Shown: in pieces, positions 15,418-49,374 of the stretch
Position numbering within the stretch: position 1 is the stretch's first letter
Layout of the letters: each line of letters begins with the position of its first letter
Source of the DNA: Myxococcota bacterium
GTDB lineage: Bacteria > Myxococcota_A > UBA9160 > JAFDDA01
Direction of reading: 5' to 3'
DNA: 64,000 nt
NCBI GenBank assembly: GCA_965228475.1
Contig: OZ245817.1
Coordinates: forward strand, 3,872,001 to 3,936,000
Notes under the pieces: model-generated
What the model was told of the DNA's origin: nothing
The model's input: only the letters and a program-made list of their open reading frames with translations
Databases searched by the model: none
Made by a program: the position numbers and the translations under genes

Positions 15418-15470
15418 ACGAGCGCCGGGCGCAACCAGAAGGCCCGGGGGCGGAGTGGTAGATTCCCGGG

Positions 15471-31039: not shown

Positions 31040-31078
31040 CTCGAGACTCCTATCGCCCCACCCGACGGCGCCGGCCGT

Positions 31079-31471: not shown

Positions 31472-31487
31472 TCGAAATCCTCCCGGA

Positions 31488-31874: not shown

Positions 31875-31941
31875 GCGAACCCTCCCGAACCGACCTTATC
31901 ACGTCGGGCGCTCCCATCCGGGGGATGCGAAGCTCTGCGGC

Positions 31942-32693: not shown

Positions 32694-32721
32694 GGGGGCA
32701 CCTCGCGTGGCTTCGGCGATT

Positions 32722-33836: not shown

Positions 33837-33846
33837 GATGCGAACC

Positions 33847-33880
33847 CCCTGACGGGACCGGCCCTTGGTGGCGGCGCCGG
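33847..33880 (-). repeat. Possible eroded attC arm (R' side)
   Basis: CCCTGACGGGACCGGCCCTTGGTGGCGGCGCCG loosely resembles CCTAACGGATCAGGCCTTCAGCAGCGCCG of the intact sites. Confidence 0.3.
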
Positions 33881-33888
33881 GTGCGGCT

Positions 33889-34299: not shown

Positions 34300-34311
34300 C
34301 GGGTCGAAACT

Positions 34312-34445
34312 ACCTGGCGATGCGGGCCTTCGGCAAAGCTCCGAGCGCTGCCTCTCAGCGCTGGCCCCGCCGTGCCCGCTGCAAAATCCTACCACGCTGA
34401 TCTGAACCCGAGTACAGGGCGCCCGCCCTTTGCCTCGCCGCCCTG
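34312..34445 (-). repeat. Degenerate family-A attC remnant
   Basis: 'gggccttcggc..gcgctgcctctcagcgctg..aatcctaccacgc' aligns by eye with the 42282 and 44497 sites; right end approximate. Confidence 0.6.
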
Positions 34446-34736: not shown

Positions 34737-35207
34737 TCAGGGGCTCTCTTCAGTACGCGCGAGGGCGAGCCGCTCGTCGACCACCGCGGCGAATCCGGGG
34801 TCGAAGGCACCGCGCTGCCGCGTCCACCAGGACCGCGTGGCCGGCATCAGGAAGGCCTGGTCGATGTCCGAGAGGTACTTCTCGCCCATGAACGAATCCA
34901 CCTCACGGGCCAGGTAGCCGAGGTGGATCCGGTTGAAGAAGGCGAAGCACAGCATCCCGAAGTGTTCGCGATCGTCCTCGGTCATCTCATCGGGGGACTG
35001 CATCGCGCGGCGCCAAACCCGGTAGAGCTCCGGGTTGGTCTGCACCTGCTCGAAGATCCCCCGGATCCCGGCCACGTAGTTCTCGTGCAGCGTGAAGCGC
35101 ACCACGTGGCTGTTCTGACGGATCTGCACGGCCAGATAGACCAGCGACCCGATCACGCCGATCGCACCGGCCAGCTCGGCGAGGGCCCCCACTGCATCCC
35201 AGTTCAT
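34737..35207 (-). CDS. Hypothetical protein with N-terminal TM (MNWDA.GA..E family)
   Basis: MNWDAVGALAELAGAIGVIGSLVYLAVQIRQN; TGGTAGGAT motif 7 nt upstream. Confidence 0.7.
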   Translation of the reverse strand: MNWDAVGALAELAGAIGVIGSLVYLAVQIRQNSHVVRFTLHENYVAGIRGIFEQVQTNPELYRVWRRAMQSPDEMTEDDREHFGMLCFAFFNRIHLGYLAREVDSFMGEKYLSDIDQAFLMPATRSWWTRQRGAFDPGFAAVVDERLALARTEESP

Positions 35208-35244
35208 GCGGAGGATCCTACCACGGCGTTTCGGGCGACCGGCG

Positions 35245-35622
35245 TCAGGCGGGGGCCGAGAAGCACAGGATGTACCCGTCCGGGTCCTCGACATAGAAGT
35301 CGCGGCGGCCCCAGGGCCGGACCTCGACGCGGCGCAGGATCCGCGCGCCTCGCCCGACGAACTCGTCGCACAGCGCGTCGACGCCGGTTGTGTCGAAGTA
35401 GACGTCGAGATGCTCGTGCTCCCTCCGATGCTCCCGGTCGGCGGTGAGCTTCCGCGCCTGCTTCAGATGGACCGTCCCGCCCTCTCGCGTCACGCTCGCG
35501 TAGAACTCTTCGTAGACGAAATCCACCGAGAACCCGAGCACATCCTCGTAGAAGCGCAGCGATCGGCCGAGGTCATCGACGAGGAGCTGGGCTGCCGCGG
35601 TAGTGATCCTCGGATCAGACAT
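35245..35622 (-). CDS. VOC/glyoxalase family protein
   Basis: RSLRFYEDVLGF, PWGRRDFYVEDPDGY. Confidence 0.88.
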   Translation of the reverse strand: MSDPRITTAAAQLLVDDLGRSLRFYEDVLGFSVDFVYEEFYASVTREGGTVHLKQARKLTADREHRREHEHLDVYFDTTGVDALCDEFVGRGARILRRVEVRPWGRRDFYVEDPDGYILCFSAPA

Positions 35623-35648: not shown

Positions 35649-36386
35649 CTAACTCGCGCCACGGTAGACCGAGATCTCCACCGCATCTGGCAGATCGCTG
35701 TACTCGATGCGGGCGGTGCGGTGCTCGGAATCGTAGCGCCCGCAGGTGCGGACGTACTCGAGGTACGGCTCGGCGCCGAACATCTCGCCGACGTTGTCGG
35801 CCACCACGATGCTCCCCTCGCGCAGGAGCCCGCGCTCCTCGAGGAGCCGGAGGTCCTTCTCGTAGAGATCCTTCCAGTGGTCGAGGAAGACGAGATCGAA
35901 GGTGCCCTCGAGCGTTCCGATGACCTTCGACGAGGACCCTTCGAGGATCTCGACCCGGCCGGCGTATCCCGCGTAGGCGACGTTCGCGCGAGAAGCACGG
36001 ACCGAATCCGCGTTCACCTCGATCGAAGTGAGCCGGCCCTCCGGCCCGAGCTCGCCGGCGATCATGATTGCGGAGTAGCCGCAGTACGCCCCGAGCTCGA
36101 GCACCCGCGCGTTCGCCGGAAGGCGCCCGATCAGCTCCGCCATGAGCGGCCCCTTCTCCGGCCCGACATTCATGAGGAACCGCCGCTCACGAGCGAACCG
36201 ATCCATCGCCCGCAGCACGCCCTCCGGGTCGCCCTCCTCCGCGTTCTCCTCGACGAACCGGCGAACCTGCTCGACCCGCGGCGGCGCGCCGGTCACGAGA
36301 TCCGCCACGAACTCATATGCGCGGCGGGCCGTCCACGGGAGGGCTTTCGGGGAAAGGAAACGGGCGAGGTTCAGAAGCTGTGCCAT
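35649..36386 (-). CDS. Catechol O-methyltransferase-like protein
   Basis: MNVGPEKG, LELGAYCGYS, FLDHWK, VADNV. Confidence 0.88.
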   Translation of the reverse strand: MAQLLNLARFLSPKALPWTARRAYEFVADLVTGAPPRVEQVRRFVEENAEEGDPEGVLRAMDRFARERRFLMNVGPEKGPLMAELIGRLPANARVLELGAYCGYSAIMIAGELGPEGRLTSIEVNADSVRASRANVAYAGYAGRVEILEGSSSKVIGTLEGTFDLVFLDHWKDLYEKDLRLLEERGLLREGSIVVADNVGEMFGAEPYLEYVRTCGRYDSEHRTARIEYSDLPDAVEISVYRGAS

Positions 36387-38011
36387 GGGTGCACCTCGCT
36401 GGCTGCAAGAGCGCGGTCGGGTCAGGAAGACACGGAAACCCTACCACGACACGCAGGATCCAAGTCGACGTCGCCCGCTGTTGCATTCCTCGCCGGCCAC
36501 CTTCGGAAGAGGGCGTCTTCCCGGGAGCTTCGTGTGATAGTTTGATCAACCGTGCGGCACCTCATCGCAAGCCTCGTGTGCCTCTTCCTCGTACCCGACC
36601 TCGGGCAGAACAGGCCCGTGTGGCCCTCAGCCGAAGCGGCCCCGGCATCGACTCCGAACGCTCGTGAGGCTCCCGAGGTATTGGAGCTCCGAGCCGGCGT
36701 AGACGCCGGCGACCCCTCTGCAATGTTGAAGCTCGCGCTGCATCTACTGAAGGGGAACCCATCGCAGCAGGCCGAGGGATTCTCTCTTCTCGAAGCCGCA
36801 GCGCAATCTGGATTGGCGCCGGCCCAGCTTCTGCTGGGAGAGCTGCACATCCTGGGGCGTGCGCCGAGCGCGGAGCCCGAGCAGGCGTTCCGCTGGATGC
36901 GAAGGGCCGCCGATCAGGGCCTCGTCGAGGCCGAGTTCCAGATGGGCCAGATGTACTACCAGGGCTTCGGAACCTCGCAGGACCGCGCCGCCTCGGTCGA
37001 GTGGTATCGGAAGGCCGCCGCGCGCGGCCATGCTGGAGCGACGAATGCTCTCGGCGTGCTCCTATCCACCGACGAGGTATTCATCAAGGATCGGACAGAG
37101 GCCGCACGCTTGTACAGAGTCGCGGCCGAGTCCGGGGATGCCGTCGGCCAGTTCAACCTGGCGAAGCGGCTCGCCGACGGCGACGGCGTGAAGAAGGACC
37201 CTGCGCGCGCCACCTACTGGTTTCACCAGGCGGCTCAGCGGGGCCATGTCGCCGCCCAGTACGACCTGGGCCTCCGCTACCTCGACGGGATTGGAACGAC
37301 CCAAGATGTCGAGGAGGGTCGGTCTTGGCTCGAGCGCGCCGGCGACGCGGGCTTCGGGCCGGCGTATCGCGCCATCGCATACCGACTTCTGGCGTCACCA
37401 GCGACCCGCGCGAGCGCGGCCGAGTGGTTCGAACGCGGGGCCGAAGCGGGCGACGCACACTCGCAGATCGCCGTCGTCGAAGCACGGATCCGGGGAGAGA
37501 TCGAGCCTGAAGACCCCGCCGACGATCTACGGAAGATCTTGGCCCTTGCCGATGCGGGCGACCTCTCCGCCATGATCACGATGTCCATGGCCCACTACAA
37601 AGGCTACGGCGTCACCCAGGACCCACTGTCAGCATTCTCTTGGGCGCAGCGCGCAGCACTCGGTGGCCTCGCCCGCGGAGAGTCGATGCTTGGGATGTAC
37701 TACGGGAAGGGAATTGGCGTCCAAGCCGATCCGAAGAAGGCAGTCGAGTGGTACCGCAAGGCCGCTGCCCAGGGGGAGCCCAACGCCCAGTACTCACTTG
37801 GGGTTCACCACCTTCTCGGGAAACACGTCCGCAAGAACCCCAAGAGAGGCATCGCGTTGCTGGAGGCGGCAGCGAAGCAAGGCAACGCCGAGGCGGCCGC
37901 GGTGCTGGAGAAGCTGAGGCGGCGCCAGCGCTCCGGCGCCGCACGCTAAGGCCGGTTCTCCGCTAGCAGAGTCGGAACTTCAAGAGAAACGGGCGAGGTT
38001 CAGGAGCTGTG
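36357..38011. repeat. 26-bp direct repeat pair (36357-36382 and 37986-38011) bracketing the Sel1 gene
   Basis: GAAACGGGCGAGGTTCAG(A/G)AGCTGTG, 25/26 identical. Confidence 0.85.
36552..37949 (+). CDS. Exported Sel1-like repeat protein
   Basis: Repeated W..KAA.QG...AQ..LG..Y..G.G units; N-terminal signal. Confidence 0.9.
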   Translation: MRHLIASLVCLFLVPDLGQNRPVWPSAEAAPASTPNAREAPEVLELRAGVDAGDPSAMLKLALHLLKGNPSQQAEGFSLLEAAAQSGLAPAQLLLGELHILGRAPSAEPEQAFRWMRRAADQGLVEAEFQMGQMYYQGFGTSQDRAASVEWYRKAAARGHAGATNALGVLLSTDEVFIKDRTEAARLYRVAAESGDAVGQFNLAKRLADGDGVKKDPARATYWFHQAAQRGHVAAQYDLGLRYLDGIGTTQDVEEGRSWLERAGDAGFGPAYRAIAYRLLASPATRASAAEWFERGAEAGDAHSQIAVVEARIRGEIEPEDPADDLRKILALADAGDLSAMITMSMAHYKGYGVTQDPLSAFSWAQRAALGGLARGESMLGMYYGKGIGVQADPKKAVEWYRKAAAQGEPNAQYSLGVHHLLGKHVRKNPKRGIALLEAAAKQGNAEAAAVLEKLRRRQRSGAAR

Positions 38012-38042
38012 TCGAGGCTTCACGCTCTGCCTTCGGAGCAGG

Positions 38043-38504
38043 TTAGACACCGTAGTAGCCCAGGAGGAGACCGTTGAGCCAGCGGCCGAACAGGAAGCCC
38101 ACGGCCACCAAGCCGAGATTGAGCAACGCGTAGCTCGCGCGCGCCCACCCGGGCGGCACGGCGCGGGCCGATACCAGGGTCGCGAGGGCGAAGAAGAACC
38201 ATGCCCCGGTGCAGACGAGAAGCGGCTTCCCGAGAAGAAACATCAGAGGCAGGTCGTGGAAGACCAGACCAGAGGAGAGAAAGGTGATCACGACGGCCAG
38301 CGGCCGATTCTCGCGGCCGCCGAGCGTCCGATAGAGACGATGAAGCACGAATCCGGCGAGAGGACTCCACGTGCGCCAGAAGTTGTGGAACCCCGGCTCG
38401 AACCAACAGTCGACGAACATGCGCCGGATCACCCGAAGAGGAGGCATCGAGGCGGGGTAGCCCCGAGCCTCGAGGTATTCCTGGTAGGACGGCGCGGAGG
38501 TCAT
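38043..38504 (-). CDS. MBOAT-like small membrane protein (cassette-like)
   Basis: 'FHNFWRTWS', 'TFLSSGLVFHD'; stop lies in an R''-like GTCTAAC. Confidence 0.55.
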   Translation of the reverse strand: MTSAPSYQEYLEARGYPASMPPLRVIRRMFVDCWFEPGFHNFWRTWSPLAGFVLHRLYRTLGGRENRPLAVVITFLSSGLVFHDLPLMFLLGKPLLVCTGAWFFFALATLVSARAVPPGWARASYALLNLGLVAVGFLFGRWLNGLLLGYYGV

Positions 38505-38530
38505 CGAGAACTCGCTCGGCTCGGCGGCAG

Positions 38531-38893
38531 CTAGTGAGCGGCCGAGACTTCGTCCAGATAGAAGACGTTCCCGTCCGGATCGGCGAAGAGCGCCAGGTAC
38601 CCGCCCCACGGCTGACGGGTAGGCGGCATCGGAAAGGCAACGCCGGCCGACGAGAGACGTTCGAACTCGGCATCGAGGTCAGCGACCGCGAACCCGACGC
38701 CGGTGTGGCGACCCACCCAATCCGCCTGCTCCGCCCCCGCCACCGCCAGCCCCAGGTGCACGGGCCCCGCAGAAAGAGAGGCGTAACCGTGCCCCGTATC
38801 CGAGTGGGCAACCCGCAGGCCGAGCTTCGACTCGTAGAACCGGAGCGCCCGGTCGAGATCCGAGACGAAGACGTTGACGTAGGCGATCTTCAT
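38531..38893 (-). CDS. VOC/glyoxalase family protein
   Basis: VSDLDRALRFYESKLG, PWGG....FADPDGN; SD AGGAG. Confidence 0.88.
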   Translation of the reverse strand: MKIAYVNVFVSDLDRALRFYESKLGLRVAHSDTGHGYASLSAGPVHLGLAVAGAEQADWVGRHTGVGFAVADLDAEFERLSSAGVAFPMPPTRQPWGGYLALFADPDGNVFYLDEVSAAH

Positions 38894-38917
38894 GTCCGGC
38901 TCCTGTGATCTGCACCA

Positions 38918-39007
38918 CCAGCGCCGCGCCACTTTGTCCAACGCCAGAACTCTACCACCCGGCGTTCGGGCACGACGCCTGGCCCCTGCTGATAGCCATT
39001 GCTAGGC
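38918..39007 (-). repeat. Partial family-A attC (R'' arm and loop kept, R' arm lost)
   Basis: acgccagaactctaccac...cctgctgatagccattgctaggc resembles the 42350-42415 segment. Confidence 0.7.
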
Positions 39008-39307
39008 AGCCGGACTCTCCGGCTCCGAACCCGCGAAACGACGAACCTGGCGAAGAACCCAGCGACCATCGGAAATGAGGTAGCGACCCAAGAAGAAGAG
39101 CAAGGCGCACTTCACCGCGTTGAATGCGAGGGACGCAAGCATCTGGGAGAGTGGAGTGACCCCAGGGTGACTCTCCGGAGATGCCACAGCGGCATAGGCG
39201 ATGCTGGGCAACCACGCGACGGCGTTGACCGCAGAAAACGCAGCCTGGAGCCAGGCGTAGAGGCCCAGGACTCGTATCGCGACCTCGAGATAGTCATTGC
39301 GAGTCAA
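39002..39307 (-). CDS. Small membrane protein (cassette)
   Basis: Two hydrophobic helices; stop TAG inside R''; TTG start inferred. Confidence 0.55.
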   Translation of the reverse strand: MTRNDYLEVAIRVLGLYAWLQAAFSAVNAVAWLPSIAYAAVASPESHPGVTPLSQMLASLAFNAVKCALLFFLGRYLISDGRWVLRQVRRFAGSEPESPAA

Positions 39308-39410
39308 TGGATCTTCCCGCCGGGCCGTCTTCGGCTTGCTGCAATCCACCGCTGCGCCACCGAGACGCGCCAACAGAATGGTATCACGGCGCAACGGAAC
39401 CCATGCGATC

Positions 39411-39935
39411 TCAGCGACGGAGCCTGAAGTGCCCCTCCCGGAGGCCCGACTCTGCGGCACGCAGCACCTCCTCTTCGCTTCGACCAAGTGTGCTGATGAC
39501 ATGCGACTCGTACTCGCCCAGCTCCGCGAAGGCGGCGACCGTCGGCCGCACTCGAGCACTCGCACCGACCCCCTGGCGCTCTCGAACCCGACGTAGCGCC
39601 TCTGCCTCAGGGACGCGGAGCACCAGGTATGACGCGTCGATATCAGGGGGTAGCTCCGCCATGACTACGGGGAGAAACCACGGGCCGAAGATGCCGTCCA
39701 GCACGACCAGATACCCACCCTCGAGAAATGCACTTGCCGCCCTCGCGGTCGCGCGGACGATCGTAGTGTTCTGGGCGTGAGATTCGGGCTTCGTTGGCTC
39801 GATGAAATGAGCTGGGAAGCCATAGAACGTGTCGCCAGTGAGATGCAGTCCTTGCGGGTGGGCCTTTGAAATCGATGCGGAGAGTGTCGTCTTGCCGGCG
39901 CCGGGGCAGCCCGACACGATGATGAGGGAAGCCAT
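39411..39935 (-). CDS. P-loop kinase/AAA_33-like protein
   Basis: Walker A GCPGAGKT; VVLDG. Confidence 0.8.
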   Translation of the reverse strand: MASLIIVSGCPGAGKTTLSASISKAHPQGLHLTGDTFYGFPAHFIEPTKPESHAQNTTIVRATARAASAFLEGGYLVVLDGIFGPWFLPVVMAELPPDIDASYLVLRVPEAEALRRVRERQGVGASARVRPTVAAFAELGEYESHVISTLGRSEEEVLRAAESGLREGHFRLRR

Positions 39936-40024
39936 TCGTACCTCGGGTCTGGAGTACGGGTCAGGTCGAGCGAGATGAAGGACCTGGCTTCCTAGTTCAT
40001 TGTCGGCTCTCGGTTCGCTTCGTC

Positions 40025-40099
40025 ACCCAAGCGGGAATCCAGAAGTCTACCAAGCAGGAGTGCAGACGCGGTGGTCGTCAGCTGCAACCCTTGTCAGGC
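40025..40099 (-). repeat. Partial family-B attC (R'' arm and loop kept)
   Basis: ccagaagtctacca...gtcagctgcaacccttgtcaggcggc resembles 45804-45867. Confidence 0.7.
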
Positions 40100-40612
40100 G
40101 GCAGGCCCCTGAGAGCGCGCCTCGACCAGGATCGCGACGAACGCGTATCCGGCCATCAGAAGGAGGAATACCAAATTGAGGAGGTAGGAAAAGAACAGCC
40201 ACGGCGAGAAGAAGCCTGCGACGGTGAGGAACTGAGCGAGAACCAGGGAGATTCCGATGACGTGTACAGCCATGAGCGGCCCCGACCGGCCGATCTGGCG
40301 CTCGCCTCGCAGGTTGACGCGCCAGCGCGCCCGAGAGTGGGCGACGATGATGGCGAGATGATAGGAGCCCAGGAGCAGGCCCGAGACGCGCCATGCGTGC
40401 GTCGGCTCCAAGTGACTCGCACGCGCAAGGTCAGGGACGAAACCAAAGACGACAACCCCCAGGCTGCATCCCAGAAGTGCGATGAGCGCCGGAGCGTCGT
40501 CCGGCTGCCAGGCTCCGTTCTCGCGCCCTCCGAGCACCATGACGACACCGGTGAATCCGGCGAACGCGATGGCGACCTCGGCCAAAGAATGGAGGATGTC
40601 CTGATGCTCCAG
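40094..40612 (-). CDS. Multi-TM hypothetical protein (cassette), probable CTG start
   Basis: 'SLAEVAIAFAGFTGVV'; AGGAG SD 8 nt before an in-frame CTG. Confidence 0.7.
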   Translation of the reverse strand: MEHQDILHSLAEVAIAFAGFTGVVMVLGGRENGAWQPDDAPALIALLGCSLGVVVFGFVPDLARASHLEPTHAWRVSGLLLGSYHLAIIVAHSRARWRVNLRGERQIGRSGPLMAVHVIGISLVLAQFLTVAGFFSPWLFFSYLLNLVFLLLMAGYAFVAILVEARSQGPAA

Positions 40613-40627
40613 AATCCCGCTCCTGCC

Positions 40628-40761
40628 GCCCAACGGATCAGGCCTTCAGCAGCGCCGAGGGTGCTGACACTCAGCGCTGCACCACCGTGGCCGATGCCAG
40701 AATCCTACCACGCCGCATTCGAGCCCAAGCCCTTGGCGTCCGCTGCAAGGCATCGTTAGGC
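40628..40761 (-). repeat. attC site, family A (134 bp)
   Basis: Minus strand GCCTAAC..TGCAGCGGAC...GCTGCTGAAGGC..GTTGGGC; imperfect palindrome between co-oriented ORFs. Confidence 0.88.
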
Positions 40762-40780
40762 GGCGGGCGTTGACCACGAA

Positions 40781-41545
40781 TCAACCTTCGATGTACTCCT
40801 CGATGGTTTCCTTGTTCTTTCGAAGTGCTGCCTGGAGTTCTTCGGGCTCAGTTCCCTCGATTCGTCGGTCAAGTTCCTCCGCCACCCCTTCGACGAGCGG
40901 GTTGAACTCAACGATGTTCCAGATCCCGTGTGAAATGTTCGCGCCAAGGACACCTGCGGAGGTGCATGCGACAAGAAAGCCCCAGGAATATGAATACGTT
41001 CCGTACTCGAGCTTCTCGCAGAGTTCCTTCAGATCAAACGCTACCTTCCGCTGGTAGGCCACGTGGCACGCGTACAAGGTCTGAAGACCATTCGACGAAG
41101 CAGCCTCCAGGAACGAGCTGAGAGGCTCGGTCTTCGTGCCCTCGTCGCTCACAGAGCCGACTGGCCGAGACCCTGCCTCTGTCGACAAGCCCTTGATTAG
41201 GGTCTGAGTCTCATCGACCCGCTCCCCAACACGTTCGATCATGCTCGGAAGGGTTTCGACCTTGCGAGTCAGCTCGTCGGAGGCTTCGGACACTCGCTCT
41301 GCCGTTCCGGACAGAAGCCGGGAAGCGCCATCGAGCGTGGCAACATTCTGGGAGAAAGAAGTGTTGGAATACATCGAGTAGGCGATCGCCAACAGGGCAA
41401 GAACCAGCGACGTGACAGTCAGTGCGAACGTGATGTAGTCGACGAGTCGCGGCACGGCGCTCCACTCGATAGTGACCAGAGCAATGATGGCTAGTACCAA
41501 GATCGATACGATGTAGAACGCGTGGATCTTGTACTTCGTTTCCAT
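40781..41545 (-). CDS. Hypothetical protein with 2 N-terminal TMs and coiled-coil-like region (cassette)
   Basis: ORF fills the space between attC sites. Confidence 0.75.
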   Translation of the reverse strand: METKYKIHAFYIVSILVLAIIALVTIEWSAVPRLVDYITFALTVTSLVLALLAIAYSMYSNTSFSQNVATLDGASRLLSGTAERVSEASDELTRKVETLPSMIERVGERVDETQTLIKGLSTEAGSRPVGSVSDEGTKTEPLSSFLEAASSNGLQTLYACHVAYQRKVAFDLKELCEKLEYGTYSYSWGFLVACTSAGVLGANISHGIWNIVEFNPLVEGVAEELDRRIEGTEPEELQAALRKNKETIEEYIEG

Positions 41546-41559
41546 CGATGTTCCCTGCC

Positions 41560-41693
41560 GCCTCACGGATCAGGCCGCCAGCGGCGCCGAGGGGGCTGAC
41601 TCTCAGCGCTGAACCACCGCGACCGATGCCGAAATCCTACCACGCCGCATCCGATCAGGAGCCCTTGGCGTCCGCTGTAAGGCCTTGCTAGGC
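41560..41693 (-). repeat. attC site, family A (134 bp)
   Basis: GCCTAGC...GTGAGGC ends; internal homology to the other family-A sites. Confidence 0.85.
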
Positions 41694-42275
41694 GGCTCCG
41701 CCTGCGAGAGGCTCTCCGCATTGAGAGCACCGTTCATCTTCCAGGGTGGCGCTGGCCGCGCACGCTGGGCAAATCTGCCAGCCGGTCGGAAACGGGAGGC
41801 CGCAGTCACTGCACTCAGTTGCTCCCGTCTCGGCGCTCGTGCCACAAGCGGGGCAGTGATCGAGTTCGGTTCCAGTCTGGGCGGACTCGCCTGGAGGACT
41901 TGGCATTCGCGATTCTTCGTGCGCCTCGACCAAACGTAGAGCAGCCTCGACAGACGACTCCTCGACATAGAGCGCCAGGTTGTAACCGTGACCGGCGCTC
42001 CCTTTTACCGCACCACGAGCGTCAATCGAGGACCCCGGCGGATCGGTGTCGATCTTGCTTGAGATGCCCCTCTCCTGGAGGAATATTGCTTGCTGTTCGA
42101 GCTGCCAGGGACCTCCGTACGAGACGATCTCCAGGTTACTCAGGTACGCGAAACCGGCTGGGCTCGGCGGCGGACTCCAGGGTTCGAGCGTGACATGACA
42201 ATCCGAGCAGGTCTCGACATCAAGCCTGTACTCGATGTGGCACGAGGGGCAGAGTTTCGCGAGTACGAAGTCCAA
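41688..42275 (-). CDS. Zinc-ribbon / DUF2007-like protein (cassette)
   Basis: CPSC..CSDC at N-terminus, four CxxC at C-terminus, central 'LQERGI...LYV....EAA'. Confidence 0.72.
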   Translation of the reverse strand: MDFVLAKLCPSCHIEYRLDVETCSDCHVTLEPWSPPPSPAGFAYLSNLEIVSYGGPWQLEQQAIFLQERGISSKIDTDPPGSSIDARGAVKGSAGHGYNLALYVEESSVEAALRLVEAHEESRMPSPPGESAQTGTELDHCPACGTSAETGATECSDCGLPFPTGWQICPACAASATLEDERCSQCGEPLAGGAA

Positions 42276-42281
42276 GAAGCC

Positions 42282-42415
42282 GCCTAACGGATCAGGCCTT
42301 CAGCAGCGCCGAGGGCGCTGACTCTCAACGCCGCACTACCGAGACCGACGCCAGAATCCTACCACGCAGCATTTTGGGGATGAGCCTTGGCGCCTGCTGA
42401 TAGGCCTTGCTAGGC
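42282..42415 (-). repeat. attC site, family A (134 bp)
   Basis: GCCTAGC...GTTAGGC; 80 bp identical to the 44497 site. Confidence 0.88.
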
Positions 42416-42419
42416 GGCA

Positions 42420-42888
42420 CTAGTCAATCTTGTTGATCGGGAGGTCGACTCTCGGATCGATGGTCAGGTTGATGATGCCTTCCGCCACCTTCCGAAACCC
42501 TTCAGATGTCTTGCGTAGCTGCGAGGTTTCAAGGACTTCCCTGTCCACCCGCAAACCGCGCTTGGCCTTTGCGCTGCTCTTGGTTCTTAGCGCGCCCTCA
42601 ATATCTGCCGGTGCCCAGATCGAATGGAGCAGCTTGTTTCGCTCCATCTCAGCCTTGGTGATCGCAGTTCGAAGAGACTCGATTTCCTGGATGTACGATT
42701 CGTCGTTGGTGGATTCTTTGAGCACCGAGAGAAGAAATTTCGTTGGAATCTCTGCTGAAACGATTTCGCCGACCGTCGTATCTGCTGACAGTGCTGCTTG
42801 CAGTGGAACAGTGAGACTCAACTCAAGGACCCAACGCCTTGAGGAAATCGTCGTCGAGGTAGTGTTCAAAGAATGTCCTTCGCGCCAA
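42420..42888 (-). pseudogene. HEPN-like gene, apparently frameshifted near 42830
   Basis: RNKLLH (Rx4H) in the C-terminal frame; N-terminal 'EHYLDDDFLKALG' lies in another frame that stops soon after. Confidence 0.5.
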
Positions 42889-42918
42889 CGCAGCCGCCTG
42901 GCTAGCCCACAGGCAGCA

Positions 42919-43773
42919 TCAGATACTGACCTTGTCCGACTTGGATCTATTGCAGTCGAAACATGTGAGTCGGATGTTCTGCTCCTCTGAACTGCCGCCT
43001 TTGGAGATCGGAATCTCGTGATCGAATTCGACTTCGTTGTCTCGCAGGTGCTTGCCACACCGTTGACATGTGTAGTTGTCACGCCGTACGACCCGAATCT
43101 TTGTCTTGAAGGAGATGTATCGACCTGTTCGGCGTAGTTCGGAGGTTTCGGTCATCTGCTCAGCGTTGAATACGGCAGGGCATAGGTGACCAAAGACGTT
43201 GCACGACGCGTCGATGAGCCAACCTGGAATCTCTTCCGGGTAGTCAGCAGCATCGAACTCGTCGATCTCCCGCTGAAAGTGCTCTCTCTGTTCGTCAGTG
43301 ATGGGGCGAAGGTTGCCAACGATCCCTGTCTTGAGGGCCCGCTTCATGTCTTCGTTGACAGCAACCGCAGCCTCGCGCGTCAGATCATCACCGATGTCCC
43401 GGCCAAGACGCTGCATCATTGTGATCTCGCCAGTCGGGTCAGGCTCGTAGTCCCCTGGATTGAAGTCGGCGACGCAATCCTCGAAGTCCTGCCTAGTCTG
43501 ATCATCGAGAGGTTCGCCATGTCCGGCCATGCCGCTGGCGAGACAACCCTTGATGTACTCCAAGTGATCAACTGCATCCTCGCGTGTCTGCGGAAGCAGG
43601 GGAGATTGCTCGACCAGGGGACCGTAGGGACAGTACTTCAGCTCCCAACACGGCTTGCACACACGGTTGGCTCGCTGCTCCCACCACGATGCGAAATCAG
43701 CATCGGACAGCGTGTCCGGGAGCGCGAGTGCTCTTCGAACGGCAGGATGGAGTCGCTGTTCTGCAGACGCCAC
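42919..43773 (-). CDS. HNH endonuclease with Cys-rich N-terminal domain (cassette)
   Basis: RDNYTCQRCG..FDHEIPISKGG....N....CFDCN. Confidence 0.9.
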   Translation of the reverse strand: MASAEQRLHPAVRRALALPDTLSDADFASWWEQRANRVCKPCWELKYCPYGPLVEQSPLLPQTREDAVDHLEYIKGCLASGMAGHGEPLDDQTRQDFEDCVADFNPGDYEPDPTGEITMMQRLGRDIGDDLTREAAVAVNEDMKRALKTGIVGNLRPITDEQREHFQREIDEFDAADYPEEIPGWLIDASCNVFGHLCPAVFNAEQMTETSELRRTGRYISFKTKIRVVRRDNYTCQRCGKHLRDNEVEFDHEIPISKGGSSEEQNIRLTCFDCNRSKSDKVSI

Positions 43774-43784
43774 GATTCGATGCC

Positions 43785-43915
43785 GCCTAGCGGACTAGGG
43801 GTTTCGCTGCGGCCAACGGCCGCCGAGGTCGCAGCGCCACCCGAGTAACGACGCTAGGATTCTACCAAGTCAGTTGGAGGCTGCGTTGGTCGGCAGCTCT
43901 AACCCCGTGTCATCC
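43785..43915 (-). repeat. attC site, family B (131 bp), degenerate R''
   Basis: Shares gctgcggccaacggccgccgaggtcgcagc with the 45736 site. Confidence 0.8.
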
Positions 43916-43926
43916 GGCATCGCTCC

Positions 43927-44493
43927 CTACCTACCGCGGCGCTTCTTTCTCGCTGTCTGCTTGCGCCCCCGTTTGTGTTGGCGCTCGTAAAACAGAGTGC
44001 CTGCTTCAAAATCTCGAATGTTGCCAGGCTGGATGTCTACTCGCTTCTTGCGTTCATTGAACTGGAGCTGTGAGCCCCCTGCTCGGATTAACAGAGTCTC
44101 GATCTCTCGCTCATGAGTCTTCTCTGCGACAATGTAGAAGGAGAAGTACTGGAGTTCCGAGGAGTGAGCCTTCTTGCGGGAAGCCAGACGCCTGAACACG
44201 TTGCCGCGGCCAACGTATCGAGCGGAACCCATCGAGTCGTGAGCTACGTAGACGCCGTTTGGTGTGATCCCTTCGCTGGCAACGTCCTTTCTGACATCAT
44301 CGAGCGCATCGAATGGCAGCTTCTCTGCGACAAGAGTGAAGAGTGGCTCGATCTTTCGTGGTCGCCCACGCCCACGGGTGAGCTGACCAGCCTTAACGGA
44401 CCAGTGCGAGTTACTCCAGACGGTGGAGTAGACGGTCTTGGTGGCCTGAGGCTTCGATCGCCGCTTCTTTCGTACTGCCATGCAACCGCTCAT
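43927..44493 (-). CDS. GIY-YIG nuclease family protein (cassette)
   Basis: GVY...RYVG.G....RL, EREIETLLI, N. Confidence 0.82.
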   Translation of the reverse strand: MSGCMAVRKKRRSKPQATKTVYSTVWSNSHWSVKAGQLTRGRGRPRKIEPLFTLVAEKLPFDALDDVRKDVASEGITPNGVYVAHDSMGSARYVGRGNVFRRLASRKKAHSSELQYFSFYIVAEKTHEREIETLLIRAGGSQLQFNERKKRVDIQPGNIRDFEAGTLFYERQHKRGRKQTARKKRRGR

Positions 44494-44496
44494 GCC

Positions 44497-44630
44497 GCCT
44501 ATCGGATCAGGCCTTCAGCAGCGCCGAGGGCGCTGACTCTCAACGCCGCACTACCGAGACCGACGCCAGAATCCTACCACGCTGCCCTTGGACAGAAGCC
44601 CTCGGCGGCTGCTGATAGGCCTTGTTGGGC
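44497..44630 (-). repeat. attC site, family A (134 bp)
   Basis: GCCCAAC...GATAGGC. Confidence 0.88.
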
Positions 44631-44642
44631 AGCTGCACGGGC

Positions 44643-44912
44643 CTACTCGTCAGAATCCAGCTCCCCGGTCGCAAGAAAGGTGAGCTCGCGATCTGAGAAC
44701 TCGGACTCTTGAAGCAGCCAACGGGCTCGGTGAGCCGACTCCGCACTAACCGAGGGCCGCACCTTTGCGGGAACAGCTGCGACAGATTGGGTGACATAAA
44801 CGGATGAGGAGACTCCGCCCGAGCGGAGCATGCCCTGGACGACCTCGGCAGTACCAATCGAGTCGAACTCTAGAACGAACTCACCATCCTGGATGGAGTC
44901 GCCGTCGCTCAT
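44643..44912 (-). CDS. DUF2007-like small protein (cassette)
   Basis: 'AEVVQGMLRSGGV...V....AHRARWLL'. Confidence 0.65.
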   Translation of the reverse strand: MSDGDSIQDGEFVLEFDSIGTAEVVQGMLRSGGVSSSVYVTQSVAAVPAKVRPSVSAESAHRARWLLQESEFSDRELTFLATGELDSDE

Positions 44913-44915
44913 GCC

Positions 44916-45022
44916 GCCTAGCGGATTCGGCGCTCAGCGGCCGCCTCGCCGCAGGCGGAGGCTTGGAGCGCCCTAGGTTGATGCCAGGATTGTACCAGGG
45001 TCGGATGGAAGCCTGGGTAGGC
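44916..45022 (-). repeat. Shorter, degenerate attC site (107 bp)
   Basis: GCCTACC...GCCGCTGAGCGCCGAATCCGCTAGGC; lies between co-oriented ORFs. Confidence 0.7.
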
Positions 45023-45027
45023 GGCGC

Positions 45028-45728
45028 CTAGCCTGTCTTCCTGAACTTATACGTATCCCAGGGGGACATGCCGACTCTCGAGCGGACGAACTTTCGAACT
45101 TGGTTGGACGATATAACAGCCAGCCGGAAGACCAGCTCACTGGCGCGCCGATAACGTGTAAGGGTGACGCGGCTTTCCGCAACAACTCGATGCGCGATCT
45201 CTCCGCGAAGAGTGATTAGGTCTTCAAGTCGCGACTGTGCGCGCTCTGCCGACATGTTCTTCCAGCGCCAATTCGACGAGAGCCTCTGGAACCCGACCAT
45301 GTGAAGGAAAAGCTCATCAACCTGTTTGGGCGGGGAGTGTTTAGCCTCCGCACATAGCGATCGAGGACCTGGTCTCGGTACGAGACGAGAACATCACGCC
45401 AGCCATCTTCTGCCAGTGCCCAGACGCGCCGTGGGTCGCTTTCTTTCTGCAGGCCACCGGCACAGAGTGCCAGGATTTTCGGTGCGAACGCTCCTGGGGA
45501 CTCTGCGTGTTCCAGCGTGAAGTCAACAGCATTGACTGCAAGATCTTCGACGAATGCCTCCCAAGACCCGACCAAGAATACGATCGCACTCCGAATCAGA
45601 ATATTGGGCTCAACGAGCGGCGCGTGGGGATCGTCACGTAAGTGTTCGTAGGTCTCGACGAGCGTATCGAGATCTCTCATGCTCGCTCGCAGCGTGCCGA
45701 TATGGGATGGCTCTTCTTGTTCGGTCAA
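45028..45728 (-). CDS. HEPN-domain protein (RiboL-PSP-HEPN-like) split by a -1 frameshift
   Basis: RSAIVFLVGSWEAFVED...NTP in frame 0; LRGEIAH (Rx4H) in the -1 frame; junction at 45324-45330. Confidence 0.72.
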
Positions 45729-45735
45729 CGGCGCC

Positions 45736-45864
45736 GCCTAACGGATCAGGGGTTCAGCTGCGGCCAACGGCCGCCGAGGTCGCAGCAGCACCCGAGTGCA
45801 AAGCCAGAACCTACCACGCAACTGGAAGGCCGCGTTGGCCGTCAGCCGCAACCCCTTGTTAGGC
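45736..45864 (-). repeat. attC site, family B (129 bp), canonical ends
   Basis: GCCTAAC-AAGGGGTTGCGGCTGAC...GCAGCTGAACCCC..GTTAGGC. Confidence 0.9.
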
Positions 45865-45873
45865 GGCCCACTC

Positions 45874-46344
45874 TCAGGGGAGCCTAACCCGAACAAAGGC
45901 CGGCTTCTGCGACATTGCATGAAACACGCCGCAGTAATAGCGCCCCGTCTTGCCGTAGTTCGCGACCGCCTCGTCTTGGTTGATGCCACCGGTCCATCTG
46001 TCGCCGGGTTCGAGCCTATGGGGGAGCGGCGGGCCGAACGGAACGTTGCCGACGACGAATCTGGCGCTTGCTCGGTCGAACAACGCATGGAAGATGGACT
46101 TGTAGTGAACGCCTGCCAGGTTCGTAATCGTGGTGGCTTGGCCCCCGTGGTTCGTAACTGAGACAAAGATGAACGTGGCATCGGGGGCGCTTGGAAGGGG
46201 CGGCATCGCCTGCATGTCGGGACTGGCGTAAACCCTGATCTCGGCTCCACGTCGTCGCCACTTGTAGACGTCCCAGCCGAGCACTGCAGTGGCAACGATC
46301 GCGCCCCACCACGCAGCGACGTCTGTAAGGGAGAGAGAATCCAT
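45874..46344 (-). CDS. Hypothetical protein with N-terminal TM (first cassette)
   Basis: ORF between the attI-like site and the first attC. Confidence 0.75.
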   Translation of the reverse strand: MDSLSLTDVAAWWGAIVATAVLGWDVYKWRRRGAEIRVYASPDMQAMPPLPSAPDATFIFVSVTNHGGQATTITNLAGVHYKSIFHALFDRASARFVVGNVPFGPPLPHRLEPGDRWTGGINQDEAVANYGKTGRYYCGVFHAMSQKPAFVRVRLP

Positions 46345-46359
46345 CTGCTCGCTTGGGCC

Positions 46360-46440
46360 GCCTAGCTAGTCTATCGGTCGGCCCCCGAGTATCTCTCGGG
46401 GTCTTGATCGTTCAGTCCGGAGTCTTGGCCGTTCAGTCTA
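46360..46440 (-). other. attI-like site
   Basis: Lone R-like GCTAGGC(GGC) at 46360-46366 with no partner arm, preceded by two 21-bp direct repeats (46397-46417, 46418-46438; 18/21 identical). Confidence 0.55.
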
Positions 46441-46578
46441 GGCTCAACCGTGTCGGAAAGGGGAAGCGCTTTTCGTTCGCGAGGCTGGGCGAGCGAAGCT
46501 ACCGGGGCAGCCGGTTGGGCTGCGCGGGGATTCTGCGGGCCAGTGTGTTCGATGATGGGGTCGGCCCTGGCGCTCACG

Positions 46579-47220
46579 CTACGCGTCCGGCAGTCGGAGG
46601 CCCGTACCGCCAAGGCCGCAGTACCCACCGGGGTTCTTGGAGAGGTACTGCTGGTGGTAGTCCTCGGCGTAGTAGAACGCGGGGGCTTCGAGGATCTCGG
46701 TGGTGATGCGGGCGCCGCGGGTCTGGCCGTCGATGACTTTCTGGAAGGCGTCGCGGGTGGCTTCGGCCTGGGTGCGTTGCGCTTCTCCGTGGACGTAGAT
46801 GCCCGAACGGTATTGGGTGCCGGTGTCGTTGCCCTGGCGCATACCTTGGGTCGGGTCGTGGGCTTCCCAGAAGATGCGGAGCATTTCGCGGTAGCTCGTG
46901 GCGCTCGGGTCGAAGACGACGCGGACCACTTCGTTGTGGCCGGTCAGGCCGGAGCAGACTTCTTCGTAGGTGGGGTTCGGGGTGTGGCCGGCGGCGTAGC
47001 CGACCGCCGTGGTGTAGACGCCTTCGGCCTGCCAGAACTTGCGCTCGGCGCCCCAGAAGCAGCCCAGGCCGAACTCGGCGACTTCCATCCCTTCCGGGAA
47101 GGGCGGCGCGAGGGCGGTGCCGAGCACGTGGTGCTTCTCGGGGACGGGCATGGCGGCGCTTCTGCCGGGGAGCGCATCCGCGGCGCTCACCATCTGGGTC
47201 TTGTCTCGGAACAGGCGCAT
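46579..47220 (-). CDS. msrA: Peptide-methionine (S)-S-oxide reductase
   Basis: [27 protein letters not shown]. Confidence 0.96.
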
Positions 47221-47224: not shown

Positions 47225-47488
47225 CTACCCTCCCGCCGCGGCCTTCACGAAGGTGACGCGGTCGCCGTCCGCCACGGGTGTGCTCATGCCGCGTTTGTGG
47301 TTCACGAGCACGCCGTTCACGGCGACGGCCGCCCGCCGCGAGAGCTCGTCGAACTCGACGCCCTTCTCGCTCAACCGCGCCTCGGTGAGCTTCACGATGT
47401 CCGAGACGCTCACGGCGTGCGGCACCTCGAAGCGCCGCTCGCCGGCGGCCTTGCCCATCTCGTAAGTCAGTTCGACGGTGATCGGCAT
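47225..47488 (-). CDS. MoaD/ThiS ubiquitin-like sulfur carrier
   Basis: VAVNG, DGDRV, C-terminal GG. Confidence 0.88.
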
Positions 47489-47490: not shown

Positions 47491-49374
47491 CTAGGCCGCC
47501 AGCCCGAGCCGGTCGAGCGTCTTCGGCTTCGGCACGCCGTGGGCGTCCCAGCCGCGTTTCTTGTAGTAGCGCGGCAGGAGCTCGCCGAGCGGGTGGCCCG
47601 AGGCGAGGCCGTCGAAGGTCGACTCGTTCAGGATGCGCGGCGGCAGCGTGTCGTACGCCCCGTCGACCCCCTCGCGCAGGTTGTAGAGCCGCTCGAGGTT
47701 GAAGATGCGCTCGCCGATCTCCTGGAGGTGCCCGCCCGAGAAGGTCGTCCCCGTGATGTAGGTGAGCCACTTCTCGAACCAGAGCATCGGCTTCCCCTTC
47801 ACCCCCATCGCCATGCGCATGAGCGGGCCGCTGTTCTCGAACAGCGTCGTCAGCACCTTGTAGGTGAAGGAGTTCGGGTTCATGTCGTGGATCTGCTTCG
47901 GGATCATCCCGTAGGTGGTGAAGATGCAGAGCACCATGCTGTTGATCGCGCAGGCGAGGTTCTGCTGCACGATCGGGATGTCCGCCTTGAGCTTCAGGCT
48001 CTGCGGGTTGATCGTGAGCGGCCCCGTCGATTCCATGTACATGCTCGCGCCCTGCACGTGGCAGCCGCCGCGGTTGGTCGTGGCGTACTCGACGCCCTGG
48101 GCGTAGGAGCCGCGCGGGTCGTAGGCCGAGAGCTCGAGCCCCTTCACGTGCATGGCGAAGTCGTGCCCGCCGTACTTCTGGCTCATGCGCCGCACGCCTT
48201 CGGCGAGGTCGTTGCCGATGCCGTCGCGGTGGCCGATCTGCTGGATGATCTCGGAGACGCCCTCGATCTTTCCGAACTCGAGCGGCACGTCGAGCATGCC
48301 GCGCTCGTGGAGCTCCATGGCGAAGCCGAGCGAGGCGCCGAGGCTGATCGTGTCCATGCCGAGGTCGTCGGCCAGGTAGTTCCACTCGTTCACCGCCTTC
48401 AGGTCGGTGACGTCGAGGTTCGAACCGAGCAGCGCCACGGTCTCGTACTCGGGCCCCTTCACGCGGCCCTTGCCCTCGATCTCGACGTCGCGCCCGCAGG
48501 TGACCGGGCAGTGGAGGCAGCTCGACTTCACGCCGACGAGCTCCGTGTCCTCCATGTGCTCGCCCGAGAGGTTCATGGCGTCCGGGTGACTGCCCTTCTG
48601 GAAGTTCCGCGTGGGCAGGATGTTCCGACCGTTCGTGGTGTTGACGATGCCCGCCGTGCCGAAGCGCTTCAGGCTCTCGCCCATCACCGGGTGCTCTTCG
48701 AAGAGCTTGCGCACTTCCTTCGTGTAGTCGCGGAAGGCCTGCTGGTCGTCCATCTCGAGCTTGCGCTTGCCGGCGACGCTCACGGCCTTGAGCTTCTTCG
48801 AGCCCATCACCGCGCCGACGCCCGTGCGCCCGGCGATGCGCTCGTTCGAGACGATGCCCGCGTAGAGCACCTCGTTCTCGCCGGCGGGGCCGATCACCGC
48901 GTGCTCGTGGCGCTTCGGCAGGAGCGTCTGGGTCTCGTAGGTGCCCTTGCCCCAGAGATCGCTCGCGTCGAGGAACTCGACGGCGTCTTCGTCGCCGTTG
49001 ATCTGGAGGCGCACCGGGCGCTCGGAGCGGCCCGTGATGAAGAGCACGTCGATGCCGGCGCGCTTCATGCCGTAGGCGAAGGAGCCGCCGCAGGCCGCGT
49101 TGCCGATCCCGCCCGTGAGCGGGCTCTTCGCCACCACGGCGAAGCGGTTCGACTGCGGGGCGACGGAGCCGTTCAGCGGGCCCGTCGCGAAGATCAGCGG
49201 ATTCTCCGGGCCGAGCGGGTCGACGCCGGCCTCGGTGCGGTCGTAGAGGAGCCGCGTCCCGTAGCCCTTGCCGCCGATGTACTGGCGGGCGATCTCTTCG
49301 TCGAGGGGCTTCCACTGGTGGGTGCGCTGGGTGAGGTCGACCTCGAGCACGCGCCCGGCATATCCCTTGATCAT
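47491..49374 (-). CDS. Aldehyde:ferredoxin oxidoreductase family (tungstopterin) enzyme
   Basis: KSPLTG, GPAGEN, GAVMGSKKLKA, CxxCxxxC, GPEYET, GMDTIS. Confidence 0.92.
   Translation of the reverse strand: MIKGYAGRVLEVDLTQRTHQWKPLDEEIARQYIGGKGYGTRLLYDRTEAGVDPLGPENPLIFATGPLNGSVAPQSNRFAVVAKSPLTGGIGNAACGGSFAYGMKRAGIDVLFITGRSERPVRLQINGDEDAVEFLDASDLWGKGTYETQTLLPKRHEHAVIGPAGENEVLYAGIVSNERIAGRTGVGAVMGSKKLKAVSVAGKRKLEMDDQQAFRDYTKEVRKLFEEHPVMGESLKRFGTAGIVNTTNGRNILPTRNFQKGSHPDAMNLSGEHMEDTELVGVKSSCLHCPVTCGRDVEIEGKGRVKGPEYETVALLGSNLDVTDLKAVNEWNYLADDLGMDTISLGASLGFAMELHERGMLDVPLEFGKIEGVSEIIQQIGHRDGIGNDLAEGVRRMSQKYGGHDFAMHVKGLELSAYDPRGSYAQGVEYATTNRGGCHVQGASMYMESTGPLTINPQSLKLKADIPIVQQNLACAINSMVLCIFTTYGMIPKQIHDMNPNSFTYKVLTTLFENSGPLMRMAMGVKGKPMLWFEKWLTYITGTTFSGGHLQEIGERIFNLERLYNLREGVDGAYDTLPPRILNESTFDGLASGHPLGELLPRYYKKRGWDAHGVPKPKTLDRLGLAA

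Follow-up and report, generated by a model that had tools for sequence, protein, structure and literature searches.

What kind of element accounts for a run of low G+C and regularly spaced palindromes in an otherwise G+C-rich myxococcotal contig? The window analysed here, 64 000 nucleotides of contig OZ245817.1 (assembly GCA_965228475.1, positions 3 872 001 to 3 936 000), has a G+C content of about 70%, which drops to 57–63% between 39 and 46 kb. All plausible open reading frames (ORFs) of this stretch lie on the minus strand, with palindromes resembling attC, the recombination site of integron cassettes, between them. The array proper (39011–46357) has 60.1% G+C against approximately 70% in its flanks, and is situated directly downstream of three co-oriented host genes: an aldehyde:ferredoxin oxidoreductase gene (AOR), a thiS-like ORF and msrA. 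[quoted passage not shown] The array is of CALIN type, a known kind of element.

Each cassette unit consists of one minus-strand ORF, or in one instance two, followed by an attC-like site of 107–134 bp (table 1). One site lies at the 3′ end of each co-oriented ORF, with the stop codon inside the R″ box or 0–17 nt from it; four stops fall inside R″ (41688–41690, 40094–40096, 39002–39004 and 38043–45), while the others lie 1–17 nt away. The original prediction, made from the sequence alone, had listed seven palindromes of 134, 134, 134, 131, 134, 107 and 129 bp with RYYYAAC/GTTRRRY-like ends, placed between co-oriented ORFs, and had noted several stops inside R″. On direct reading the core lengths proved exact, and the palindromes do separate minus-strand ORFs at 40.6–45.9 kb. 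Most R boxes carry a 3-bp GCC/GGC extension to GCCGCCTAAC / GTTAGGCGGC, giving an R-box consensus of GCCGCCTAAC...GTTAGGCGGC; the consensus of the attC family, GCCTAAC...GTTAGGC, provides the inverse core sites typical of attC. The two sequence families recognized earlier are real: family A (s3, s4, s5 and s7) has an internal identity of 79–87% and family B (s6 and s9) of 76%, with s8 as a short outlier. Equally exact is the reported 80-bp identity between 42288–42367 and 44503–44582, to which not one base can be added at either end. This block corresponds to the R′-side arm and centre of s5 and s7; the R″-side stretch that follows has diverged, and the 3′ arm of s7 complements the shared 5′ arm better than that of s5. 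Because the block ends mid-site, it is not the product of an integrase crossover at R′, and this suggests gene conversion between attC sites. A match between the 5′ remainder of a cassette and its own R″, as expected just after insertion, was seen by eye in one of eight cases and was set aside as uninformative.

Evidence that these palindromes are attC sites comes from their fold. As the ORFs are on the minus strand, the plus strand is the bottom strand, and all sites share one orientation with the ORFs. When folded as DNA, the plus strands form hairpins of −25 to −36 kcal/mol in which the R boxes and adjacent L regions are paired. We aligned 24 sites from five contigs, namely the window and four related loci (L020, L028, L063 and L033, described below). 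The consensus hairpin has 24 pairs, 10 of which show compensatory double changes. Overall, 91.6% of cells were paired compared with 78.4% in shuffled alignments, with 79 double-change cells compared with 32.5; none of 500 shuffles reached either value, and slid controls gave at most 63.6% pairing and 24 double-change cells. The hairpin is thus an imperfect bottom-strand structure kept by selection, as is expected of attC. Two single-base bulges, 6 bp apart, always fall on the plus-strand 3′ arm (the R″/L″ arm), both in the alignment and in the folds; described attC sites carry extrahelical bases on this arm (PMC5371416). The bulged bases are mostly T (distal) and C (proximal), being C and T in s5 and s7. 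The bulges lie on the arm expected of attC, and there is no conserved G among them. The cores of 107–134 bp are of attC length, and the centre is their least conserved part except for a motif at the apex. A covariance model made from the seven window sites and applied, with its filters disabled, to the full 64 kb scored 65–152 bits in the array only (scores that by themselves prove nothing for the sites from which the model was built), while the next four matches were weak relics of 13–21 bits. Within the 64 kb searched, no copy above 21 bits lies outside 34.3–45.9 kb, so the repeats are not dispersed there in the manner of repetitive extragenic palindromic (REP) sequences or miniature inverted-repeat transposable elements (MITEs). 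Rfam at gathering threshold returned no matches over the window, and a terminator scan of 37.9–46.7 kb found nine terminator-like sites (6.2 expected), none of them at an attC.

The search for an integrase was negative. No Phage_integrase domain was detected in 65 ORFs (Pfam scans of 25 and 40 ORFs) or in another 103 ORFs, 120 aa or longer, taken from all six frames of 29.7–64 kb. The combined scan of 168 ORFs covered six-frame ORFs of at least 120 aa for 29.7–64 kb and ORFs supported by G+C at third codon positions (GC3) for 1–29.7 kb; over this set the original prediction of an array without integrase holds. There was also no remnant of intI, for which the 210 nt between msrA and the head junction leave no room. 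With seven good sites and no integrase domain among the scanned ORFs, the array corresponds to a CALIN as defined by Cury et al. 2016, which bears out the layout proposed originally. In a complete integron, intI would lie beside attI at the head; here the head is followed by three minus-strand genes, namely msrA, the thiS-like gene and AOR. The suggestion that msrA occupies the place of intI is right as to position, since msrA adjoins the head, but it is co-oriented with the cassettes whereas intI is usually divergent. The missing remnant is not unusual, as 95% of CALINs are reported to have no recognisable intI pseudogene nearby (Cury et al. 2016, PMC4889954). Neither tRNA nor tmRNA genes, which might mark an island, were detected in the window, and GC skew within it was too weak to place the array relative to replication.

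At the head, the first cassette begins at G↓CTAGGCGGC (46366–46357, cassette sense) after a leader instead of an attC. In addition to a 21-nt tandem repeat, the leader contains a small hairpin (46383–46401) and an imperfect inverted repeat around the crossover point; the 9-nt core of the 21-nt repeat was not found in L020, L028, L033 or L063. The tandem and inverted repeats may recall the accessory binding repeats of attI. On these sequence features the leader is compatible with a putative attI, and nothing ties it to an integrase; insertion at attG, a secondary genomic site, would leave the same head junction. Further into the leader, at 46496–46503 on the minus strand and about 150 nt upstream of the ATG of the first cassette, lies CGGTAGCTT, one base short of the apex motif TGnTAnnnT. 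It could be a weak promoter resembling the cassette promoter Pc, or an attC relic.

Related sites were sought in genome contigs with a two-part pattern derived from the attC sites, yielding 73 loci, of which 68 had no model match at E ≤0.01. One further locus (L065) had a single marginal match (28.8 bits, E 0.0093) and was treated as chance. The remaining four loci come from three metagenome-assembled genomes (MAGs): L020 and L028, with six and five sites, are short contigs that both belong to a MAG labelled Gemmatimonadota; L063, with six sites, is from a MAG labelled Myxococcota; and L033, with seven model matches, is from one labelled Proteobacteria. Family B of the window and the L020 sites are 73–75% identical, about as close as s6 and s9 are to each other. 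No cassette ORF of the window recurs in the four related loci; tblastn gave one match, and this was to the translated R′ region. Because the related sites in other genomes flank unrelated ORFs, the pattern is that expected of a cassette pool, in which the same attC family flanks unrelated genes in different genomes. In L063 (5139–5465), the array starts with a complete attC, 190 nt downstream of a co-oriented short-chain dehydrogenase (SDR) gene. No integrase was seen in L063 (16.3 kb) or in L033, and the L063 array is a second CALIN with the same attC family. Between 1801 and 15667 of L033 there are 13 apex motifs with conserved flanks, making that array about twice the length found by the covariance model; its R boxes have largely decayed. 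An 18/19-nt match between the end of msrA and the end of the SDR gene was dropped as chance, as 14 of 500 shuffles reached its score.

The left boundary given in the original prediction (38042) proved too short, since weak model matches and local alignments trace the array as fossil attC relics to about 34.3 kb. In the truncated site s1, a glyoxalase-fold gene (ATG 38893, minus strand) begins in place of the R′ half. Genes between the distal relics are small, mostly co-oriented and functionally unrelated: they encode two glyoxalase-fold proteins, a methyltransferase, a zinc-ribbon protein and, in reverse orientation, a Sel1-repeat protein. The Sel1-repeat gene (36552–37949, plus strand) is flanked by a 38-nt direct repeat (36357–36394 and 37986–38023; 84% identical), one copy of which contains the start of the methyltransferase gene. 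As both copies align to the L′/R′ arm of the attC family, they resemble a pair of attC relics more than a duplicated target. Beyond the leftmost relic that can still be recognised, 30566–34400 is occupied by a further series of genes that are small and unrelated, most of them on the minus strand (GFA, glyoxalase-fold, GNAT on the plus strand, DUF2277, methyltransferase, DUF6713 and zinc ribbon). These might be still older domesticated cassettes; the 64-kb model scan found no attC trace among them.

Both site decay and amelioration of G+C grow with distance from msrA. GC3 rises, in a gradient that is not monotonic, from 0.57–0.73 in the head-proximal ORFs to 0.83–0.86 at 34–36 kb, compared with 0.88 for msrA and 0.97 for AOR. 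We infer that the oldest cassettes are the distal ones and, because both trends increase away from msrA, that an integron integrase would have inserted cassettes singly at the msrA-proximal junction. That activity appears to have ceased. The R′ crossover triplet GTT is intact in three of the seven window sites, the others reading GTG, GAT, GCT and GCT and the head junction GCT, each one base away from GTT. The R″ triplet AAC is likewise intact in three of seven, and both triplets survive in s3 and s9 only. By comparison, R′ GTT is intact in all sites scored in L020 (6/6), L028 (4/4) and L063 (6/6), or 16/16 in two other MAGs. With most crossover triplets mutated, two sites truncated and one cassette gene frameshifted, the array looks to be fossilising and no longer recombined. 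The original prediction had left the choice between an integrase that was lost and one acting in trans, and the evidence in the window favours one that is no longer acting.

A conserved feature of the otherwise variable hairpin centre, overlooked in the original prediction, is TGnTAnnnT, which occupies the apex, read in cassette sense, in 28 of the 32 aligned attC sites, a count inflated by the shared ancestry of these homologous sites. The motif is present in 9/9 sites of the window, 6/6 of L063, 5/6 of L020, 6/7 of L033 and 2/4 of L028. Across 41 motif-bearing centres, the two middle positions of the hexamer carry just 0.08–0.21 bits (16 different triplets) and flanking positions outside the search pattern 0.65–1.5 bits; the motif itself served to select the rows for these figures and for the arm identities given below, so that the apex values are biased and the fixed positions carry no weight. 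Over both strands of the window there are 20 matches to TGnTAnnnT against 8.9 ± 3.0 expected. The array and its fossil part account for 13 of them, every one on the minus strand, and six of the other seven precede by 6–32 nt the in-frame start codon of a gene with Pfam support (table 1), the seventh (8330) being intragenic. In three genes the motif ends only 6–8 nt before the start codon (15456–15473, ATG 15471; 36535–36554, GTG 36552; 35205–35223, ATG 35207), a spacing that suggests leaderless mRNAs in the source organism.

The apex also appears to persist where the recombination boxes do not. Among the 13 apex motifs of L033, spread over 1.8 to 15.7 kb, mean pairwise identity is 36% in the R″/L″ arm, 59% at the apex and 55% in the 3′ arm; in the intact L063 array the corresponding values are 70%, 52% and 58%. 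Three window relics (34394, 35223 and 36446) retain the motif in front of genes although their R boxes are gone. The distance from the R′ extension AGGCGGC to the cassette start codons that were read is 0–19 nt, and in six of seven window junctions it is 8 nt or less. From these sequence patterns we infer that TGnTAnnnT acts as an extended −10 promoter element in the source genome, and that each attC carries a candidate copy aimed at the next cassette; such a promoter would probably outlive the recombination function of its site. Each attC would then start a transcript some 65–100 nt upstream of the start codon of the next cassette. A transcript begun at the apex would not contain the hairpin's 5′ arm, leaving the AGGCGGC start region unpaired, and cassette expression would be independent of Pc.

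A wider proposition, which we advance tentatively and with slightly less than even confidence, is that the attC family shared by the window and the MAGs labelled as three phyla is dual-purpose: a recombination site with an extended −10 promoter at the hairpin apex, whose promoter half is selected after integrase loss while the boxes decay. Irrespective of its place in the array, each cassette would owe its transcription to the attC that precedes it. Starting inside the hairpin would mean that the stem masking the start region cannot form, and cassettes would become ordinary host genes with attC-derived promoters, as may have happened at 34394, 35223 and 36446. In a bolder extension, the −10 element would be pre-melted in an extruded cruciform, coupling cassette expression to supercoiling and attC folding. 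A narrow phrase search of the literature for an attC-borne promoter returned one unrelated paper, a result that does not show the idea to be new.

Several other explanations must be weighed against this account. The repeats could conceivably be REP-, MITE- or terminator-like intergenic palindromes rather than integron sites: they are long, imperfect and intergenic, Rfam does not recognize them and no integrase is present. We consider this highly improbable, as the strong copies are confined to one low-G+C block with none in the other approximately 50 kb, keep a single orientation with one copy per ORF, end in RYYYAAC/GTTRRRY boxes that can hold the ORF stop, carry their bulges consistently on one arm and have no T-run after the stem; the relatives, moreover, also form tight arrays (six sites in 4.1 kb and five in 2.5 kb). 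A more serious contender concerns the origin of the head, which might be an ordinary attG site downstream of msrA, used by an integrase from elsewhere or present transiently, with the array growing there or arriving as a block. IntI inserts cassettes at many genomic sites with only a GWT consensus, and this has been proposed as the origin of small CALINs, with expression from nearby resident promoters demonstrated (Loot et al., bioRxiv 10.1101/2022.09.11.507474). The position just downstream of a co-oriented host operon, the short msrA-to-junction interval without intI remnant and the similar placement of the L063 array after its SDR gene, with no integrase in 16 kb, would all fit. We nevertheless regard it as rather unlikely, because at least 10–14 cassettes is large for this route when most CALINs are small (PMC4889954; bioRxiv 10.1101/2022.09.11.507474), the grading of decay away from the head points to insertions repeated at a single place, as happens at attI, the tandem and inverted repeats at the head may recall those of attI, and the complete attC that begins the L063 array is not a product of attC × attG insertion. 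Less probable again is a working integron whose integrase and true attI lie elsewhere in the genome, through rearrangement or on another replicon, and act in trans. Half of CALINs are in replicons encoding IntI and rearrangement can split arrays (Cury et al. 2016, PMC4889954), s3 and s9 retain both triplets, s5 retains R′ GTT, and the head-proximal cassettes are the least ameliorated. Against this stand the mutated R′ triplets (four of seven, plus the head junction) where L020, L028 and L063 have every one intact, together with the truncated sites and the frameshifted cassette gene.

The promoter function of the apex also faces an alternative, namely that the motif is kept for recombination or DNA structure, for example as a protein-binding site in the variable terminal structure, or by descent alone. 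Homology unites the sites, partial conservation extends to the positions immediately 3′ of the motif (T, C/T, G/T, G), and there is neither a conserved −35 nor a match to a consensus promoter. We find this alternative doubtful, since the information pattern is that of a −10 element (TG, TA and the final T fixed, the two middle hexamer positions nearly free), the motif is strand-specific and always in cassette sense, and it recurs at the source genome's own gene starts; its survival in relics without R boxes (34394, 35223, 36446 and L033) is the reverse of what a recombination role predicts. Returning to the reading of an unrecombined CALIN expressed from its attC apices, a number of observations weigh against it, among them the common ancestry and motif-based choice of sites, the self-built model and the uneven GC3 gradient already mentioned. 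No attC apex has a conserved −35, and a sigma-70 consensus scan of 37.9–46.7 kb, which needs one, found a single promoter-like site (1.4 expected) and none at an attC. The motif is absent from three sub-family sites (L028 473–606 and 2314–2448; L020 3651–3785) and one L033 site, and about 9 kb of non-array L063 sequence contains no TGnTAnnnT, limiting the host-type promoter pattern to the genome of the window. MAG phylum labels may be unreliable. The unpaired spacer of the sites is lopsided, with 5–6 nt (GGATC) on the 5′ side against 1–2 nt opposite; the textbook attC spacer is less so. The R-proximal bulge is mostly C, whereas the extrahelical bases of attC include a conserved G (PMC5371416). 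As regards excision and integrase activity, the sites are candidate attC sites.

The cassette ORFs are listed in table 1. NCBIfam gave no cassette ORF a match above cut-off, PADLOC returned only weak HNH/REase-like matches for the HNH ORF, and an Atlas search with a 254-aa ORF found unnamed clusters only. The split of the HEPN (RiboL-PSP) gene of cassette 2 into two ORFs indicates a frameshift. The zinc-ribbon cassette ORF (41688–42275, minus strand) has a weak match, below cut-off, to the NCBIfam ‘(seleno)protein DG’ model; elsewhere in the window, one gene (15462–17702, plus strand) combines Pyr_redox_2 with AIRS/AIRS_C domains in a selenophosphate-synthetase-like fusion. The two may hint at selenium metabolism. 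Beyond the head, the thiS-like sequence is a small ThiS/MoaD-family ORF between AOR and msrA, detected only at the C-terminal end of a long frame running from stop to stop (Pfam ThiS 2.3e-09).

Table 1. Array components, relics, apex motifs and neighbouring genes, by position in the window.
Feature	Position	Strand	Remarks
AOR	47491–49374	−	upstream of thiS-like ORF; GC3 0.97
thiS-like ORF	47228–47449	−	upstream of msrA
msrA	46579–47220	−	host gene adjoining array head; Pfam PMSR 1.2e-61; TIGR00401 1.3e-65; GC3 0.88
‘attI-like’ leader	46383–46444	−	putative; two 21-nt tandem repeats, 46438–46418 and 46417–46397 (18/21 identical)
Head junction	46357–46366	+	lone R′ remainder GCCGCCTAGC; cassette sense G↓CTAGGCGGC; no attC upstream; non-attC DNA beyond
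Cassette 1 ORF, 156 aa	45874–46344	−	no family found
attC s9	45733–45867	+ (bottom strand)	core 45736–45864; family B; R′ GTT and R″ AAC intact; 127 bits
Cassette 2, HEPN (RiboL-PSP) gene	45028–45728	−	two overlapping ORFs, 45216–45728 and 45028–45300; profile positions 15–72 and 117–182
attC s8	44913–45025	+	core 44916–45022; short type; R′ GCT, R″ ACC; 65.5 bits
attC s7	44494–44633	+	core 44497–44630; family A; R′ GAT; 80 identical bases with s5; 152 bits
attC s6	43782–43918	+	core 43785–43915; family B; R″ degenerate (GTCATCC), R′ GCT; 111.5 bits
Two-ORF cassette	42420–43773	−	HNH endonuclease-domain protein, 42919–43773; ORF without assigned family, 42420–43082
attC s5	42279–42418	+	core 42282–42415; family A; R′ GTT, R″ AGC; 148 bits
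Cassette ORF, double zinc ribbon	41688–42275	−	domain match
attC s4	41557–41696	+	core 41560–41693; family A; R′ GTG, R″ AGC; stop of upstream ORF inside R″; 144 bits
attC s3	40625–40764	+	core 40628–40761; family A; GTT and AAC both intact; 147 bits
Half site s2	~39975–40102	+	R″/L″ arm and apex kept, L′/R′ arm lost; 15.3 bits
Cassette ORF, P-loop kinase-like protein	39411–39935	−	Pfam AAA_18/AAA_33/CPT
Relic attC	39297–39410	+	between kinase-like ORF and next ORF; 13.4 bits
Truncated site s1	~38909–39010	+	R″/L″ arm and apex kept; 21 bits
Glyoxalase/bleomycin-resistance-fold ORF	38531–38893	−	decayed distal part
Weaker relics	37984–38048, 36387–36510, ~35205–35260	+	local alignments or weak model matches
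Fossil attC	34316–34439	+	apex and L′ arm recognisable, R boxes gone; 17.8 bits; local score 98 against s3, similar to s1
Ten apex motifs, one per attC or relic	38949–45816	−	first bases 45816, 44997, 44579, 43867, 42364, 41642, 40710, 40052, 39386, 38957
Three apex motifs, fossil part	36446, 35223, 34394	−	
Non-array motif	15456		ATG 15471
Non-array motif	18784		ATG 18811; GAGGAGG between motif and start
Non-array motif	36535		GTG 36552
Non-array motif	50261		ATG 50293
Non-array motif	49406		ATG 49374 (AOR)
Non-array motif	31901		GTG 31874

Thousands of CALINs have been catalogued, and as an integrase-less cassette array the find is ordinary. What it adds is the decay series and the promoter-like apex. 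A single 12-kb stretch displays every grade between attC sites that are well formed and mere relics, a rare view of the domestication of cassettes into a chromosome, while the apex offers a testable variant on the standard model of integron expression. If the apex motif is a promoter, the standard picture, in which promoterless cassettes are silenced with distance from Pc, would fail for this attC family, and the continued expression of arrays that have lost their platform would be explained.

Compared with the canonical attC sites of mobile integrons and the Vibrio cholerae repeats (VCRs), as far as they are described in the cited part of Loot et al. 2017 (PMC5371416), the window family likewise has an imperfect hairpin formed by the bottom strand with its R and L boxes, a variable terminal structure, a length within 57–141 bp and a conserved cleavage-point triplet; its bulges and unpaired stretch may correspond to the extrahelical bases and spacer. 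It differs in the extension of the 7-bp R boxes by GCC/GGC (three G:C pairs), in the lopsided spacer (5–6 versus 1–2 nt) and mostly C, not G, R-proximal bulge, and in the conserved TGnTAnnnT of its terminal structure. Like the CALINs surveyed by Cury et al. 2016 (PMC4889954), the array has at least two attC-type sites, co-oriented cassettes mostly of unknown function, and nearby neither intI nor a pseudogene recognisable as intI. In size it exceeds most of them (83% have fewer than six sites, against seven good and about seven decayed sites here), and its head-to-tail decay gradient and promoter-like apex set it apart from the CALINs in the cited sections of that survey. The sedentary integrons and CALINs of Xanthomonas, found at fixed chromosomal loci beside conserved host genes (ilvD, lamG, secF and others), with integrase activity that is ancestral and often lost (bioRxiv 10.1101/2025.06.18.660453), are similar in lying next to a host gene; in the window that gene is msrA, the attC family is unrelated to those reported there, and the genome is of high G+C. 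Insertion at attG, as covered in the cited part of Loot et al. (bioRxiv 10.1101/2022.09.11.507474), likewise places cassettes outside an integron platform and downstream of a resident promoter, and involves single or few cassettes rather than a long graded array. Finally, cassette-borne promoters are known from cmlA, qac, qnrVC and toxin–antitoxin cassettes and from gene-less promoter cassettes in Vibrio superintegrons (PMC8876359; bioRxiv 10.1101/2023.11.21.568050), where they too allow distal cassettes to be expressed independently of Pc. Those promoters, as described in the cited parts of both sources, lie in cassette 5′ untranslated regions or in gene-less cassettes, whereas the candidate in the window would sit inside the recombination site itself and be common to the whole attC family.

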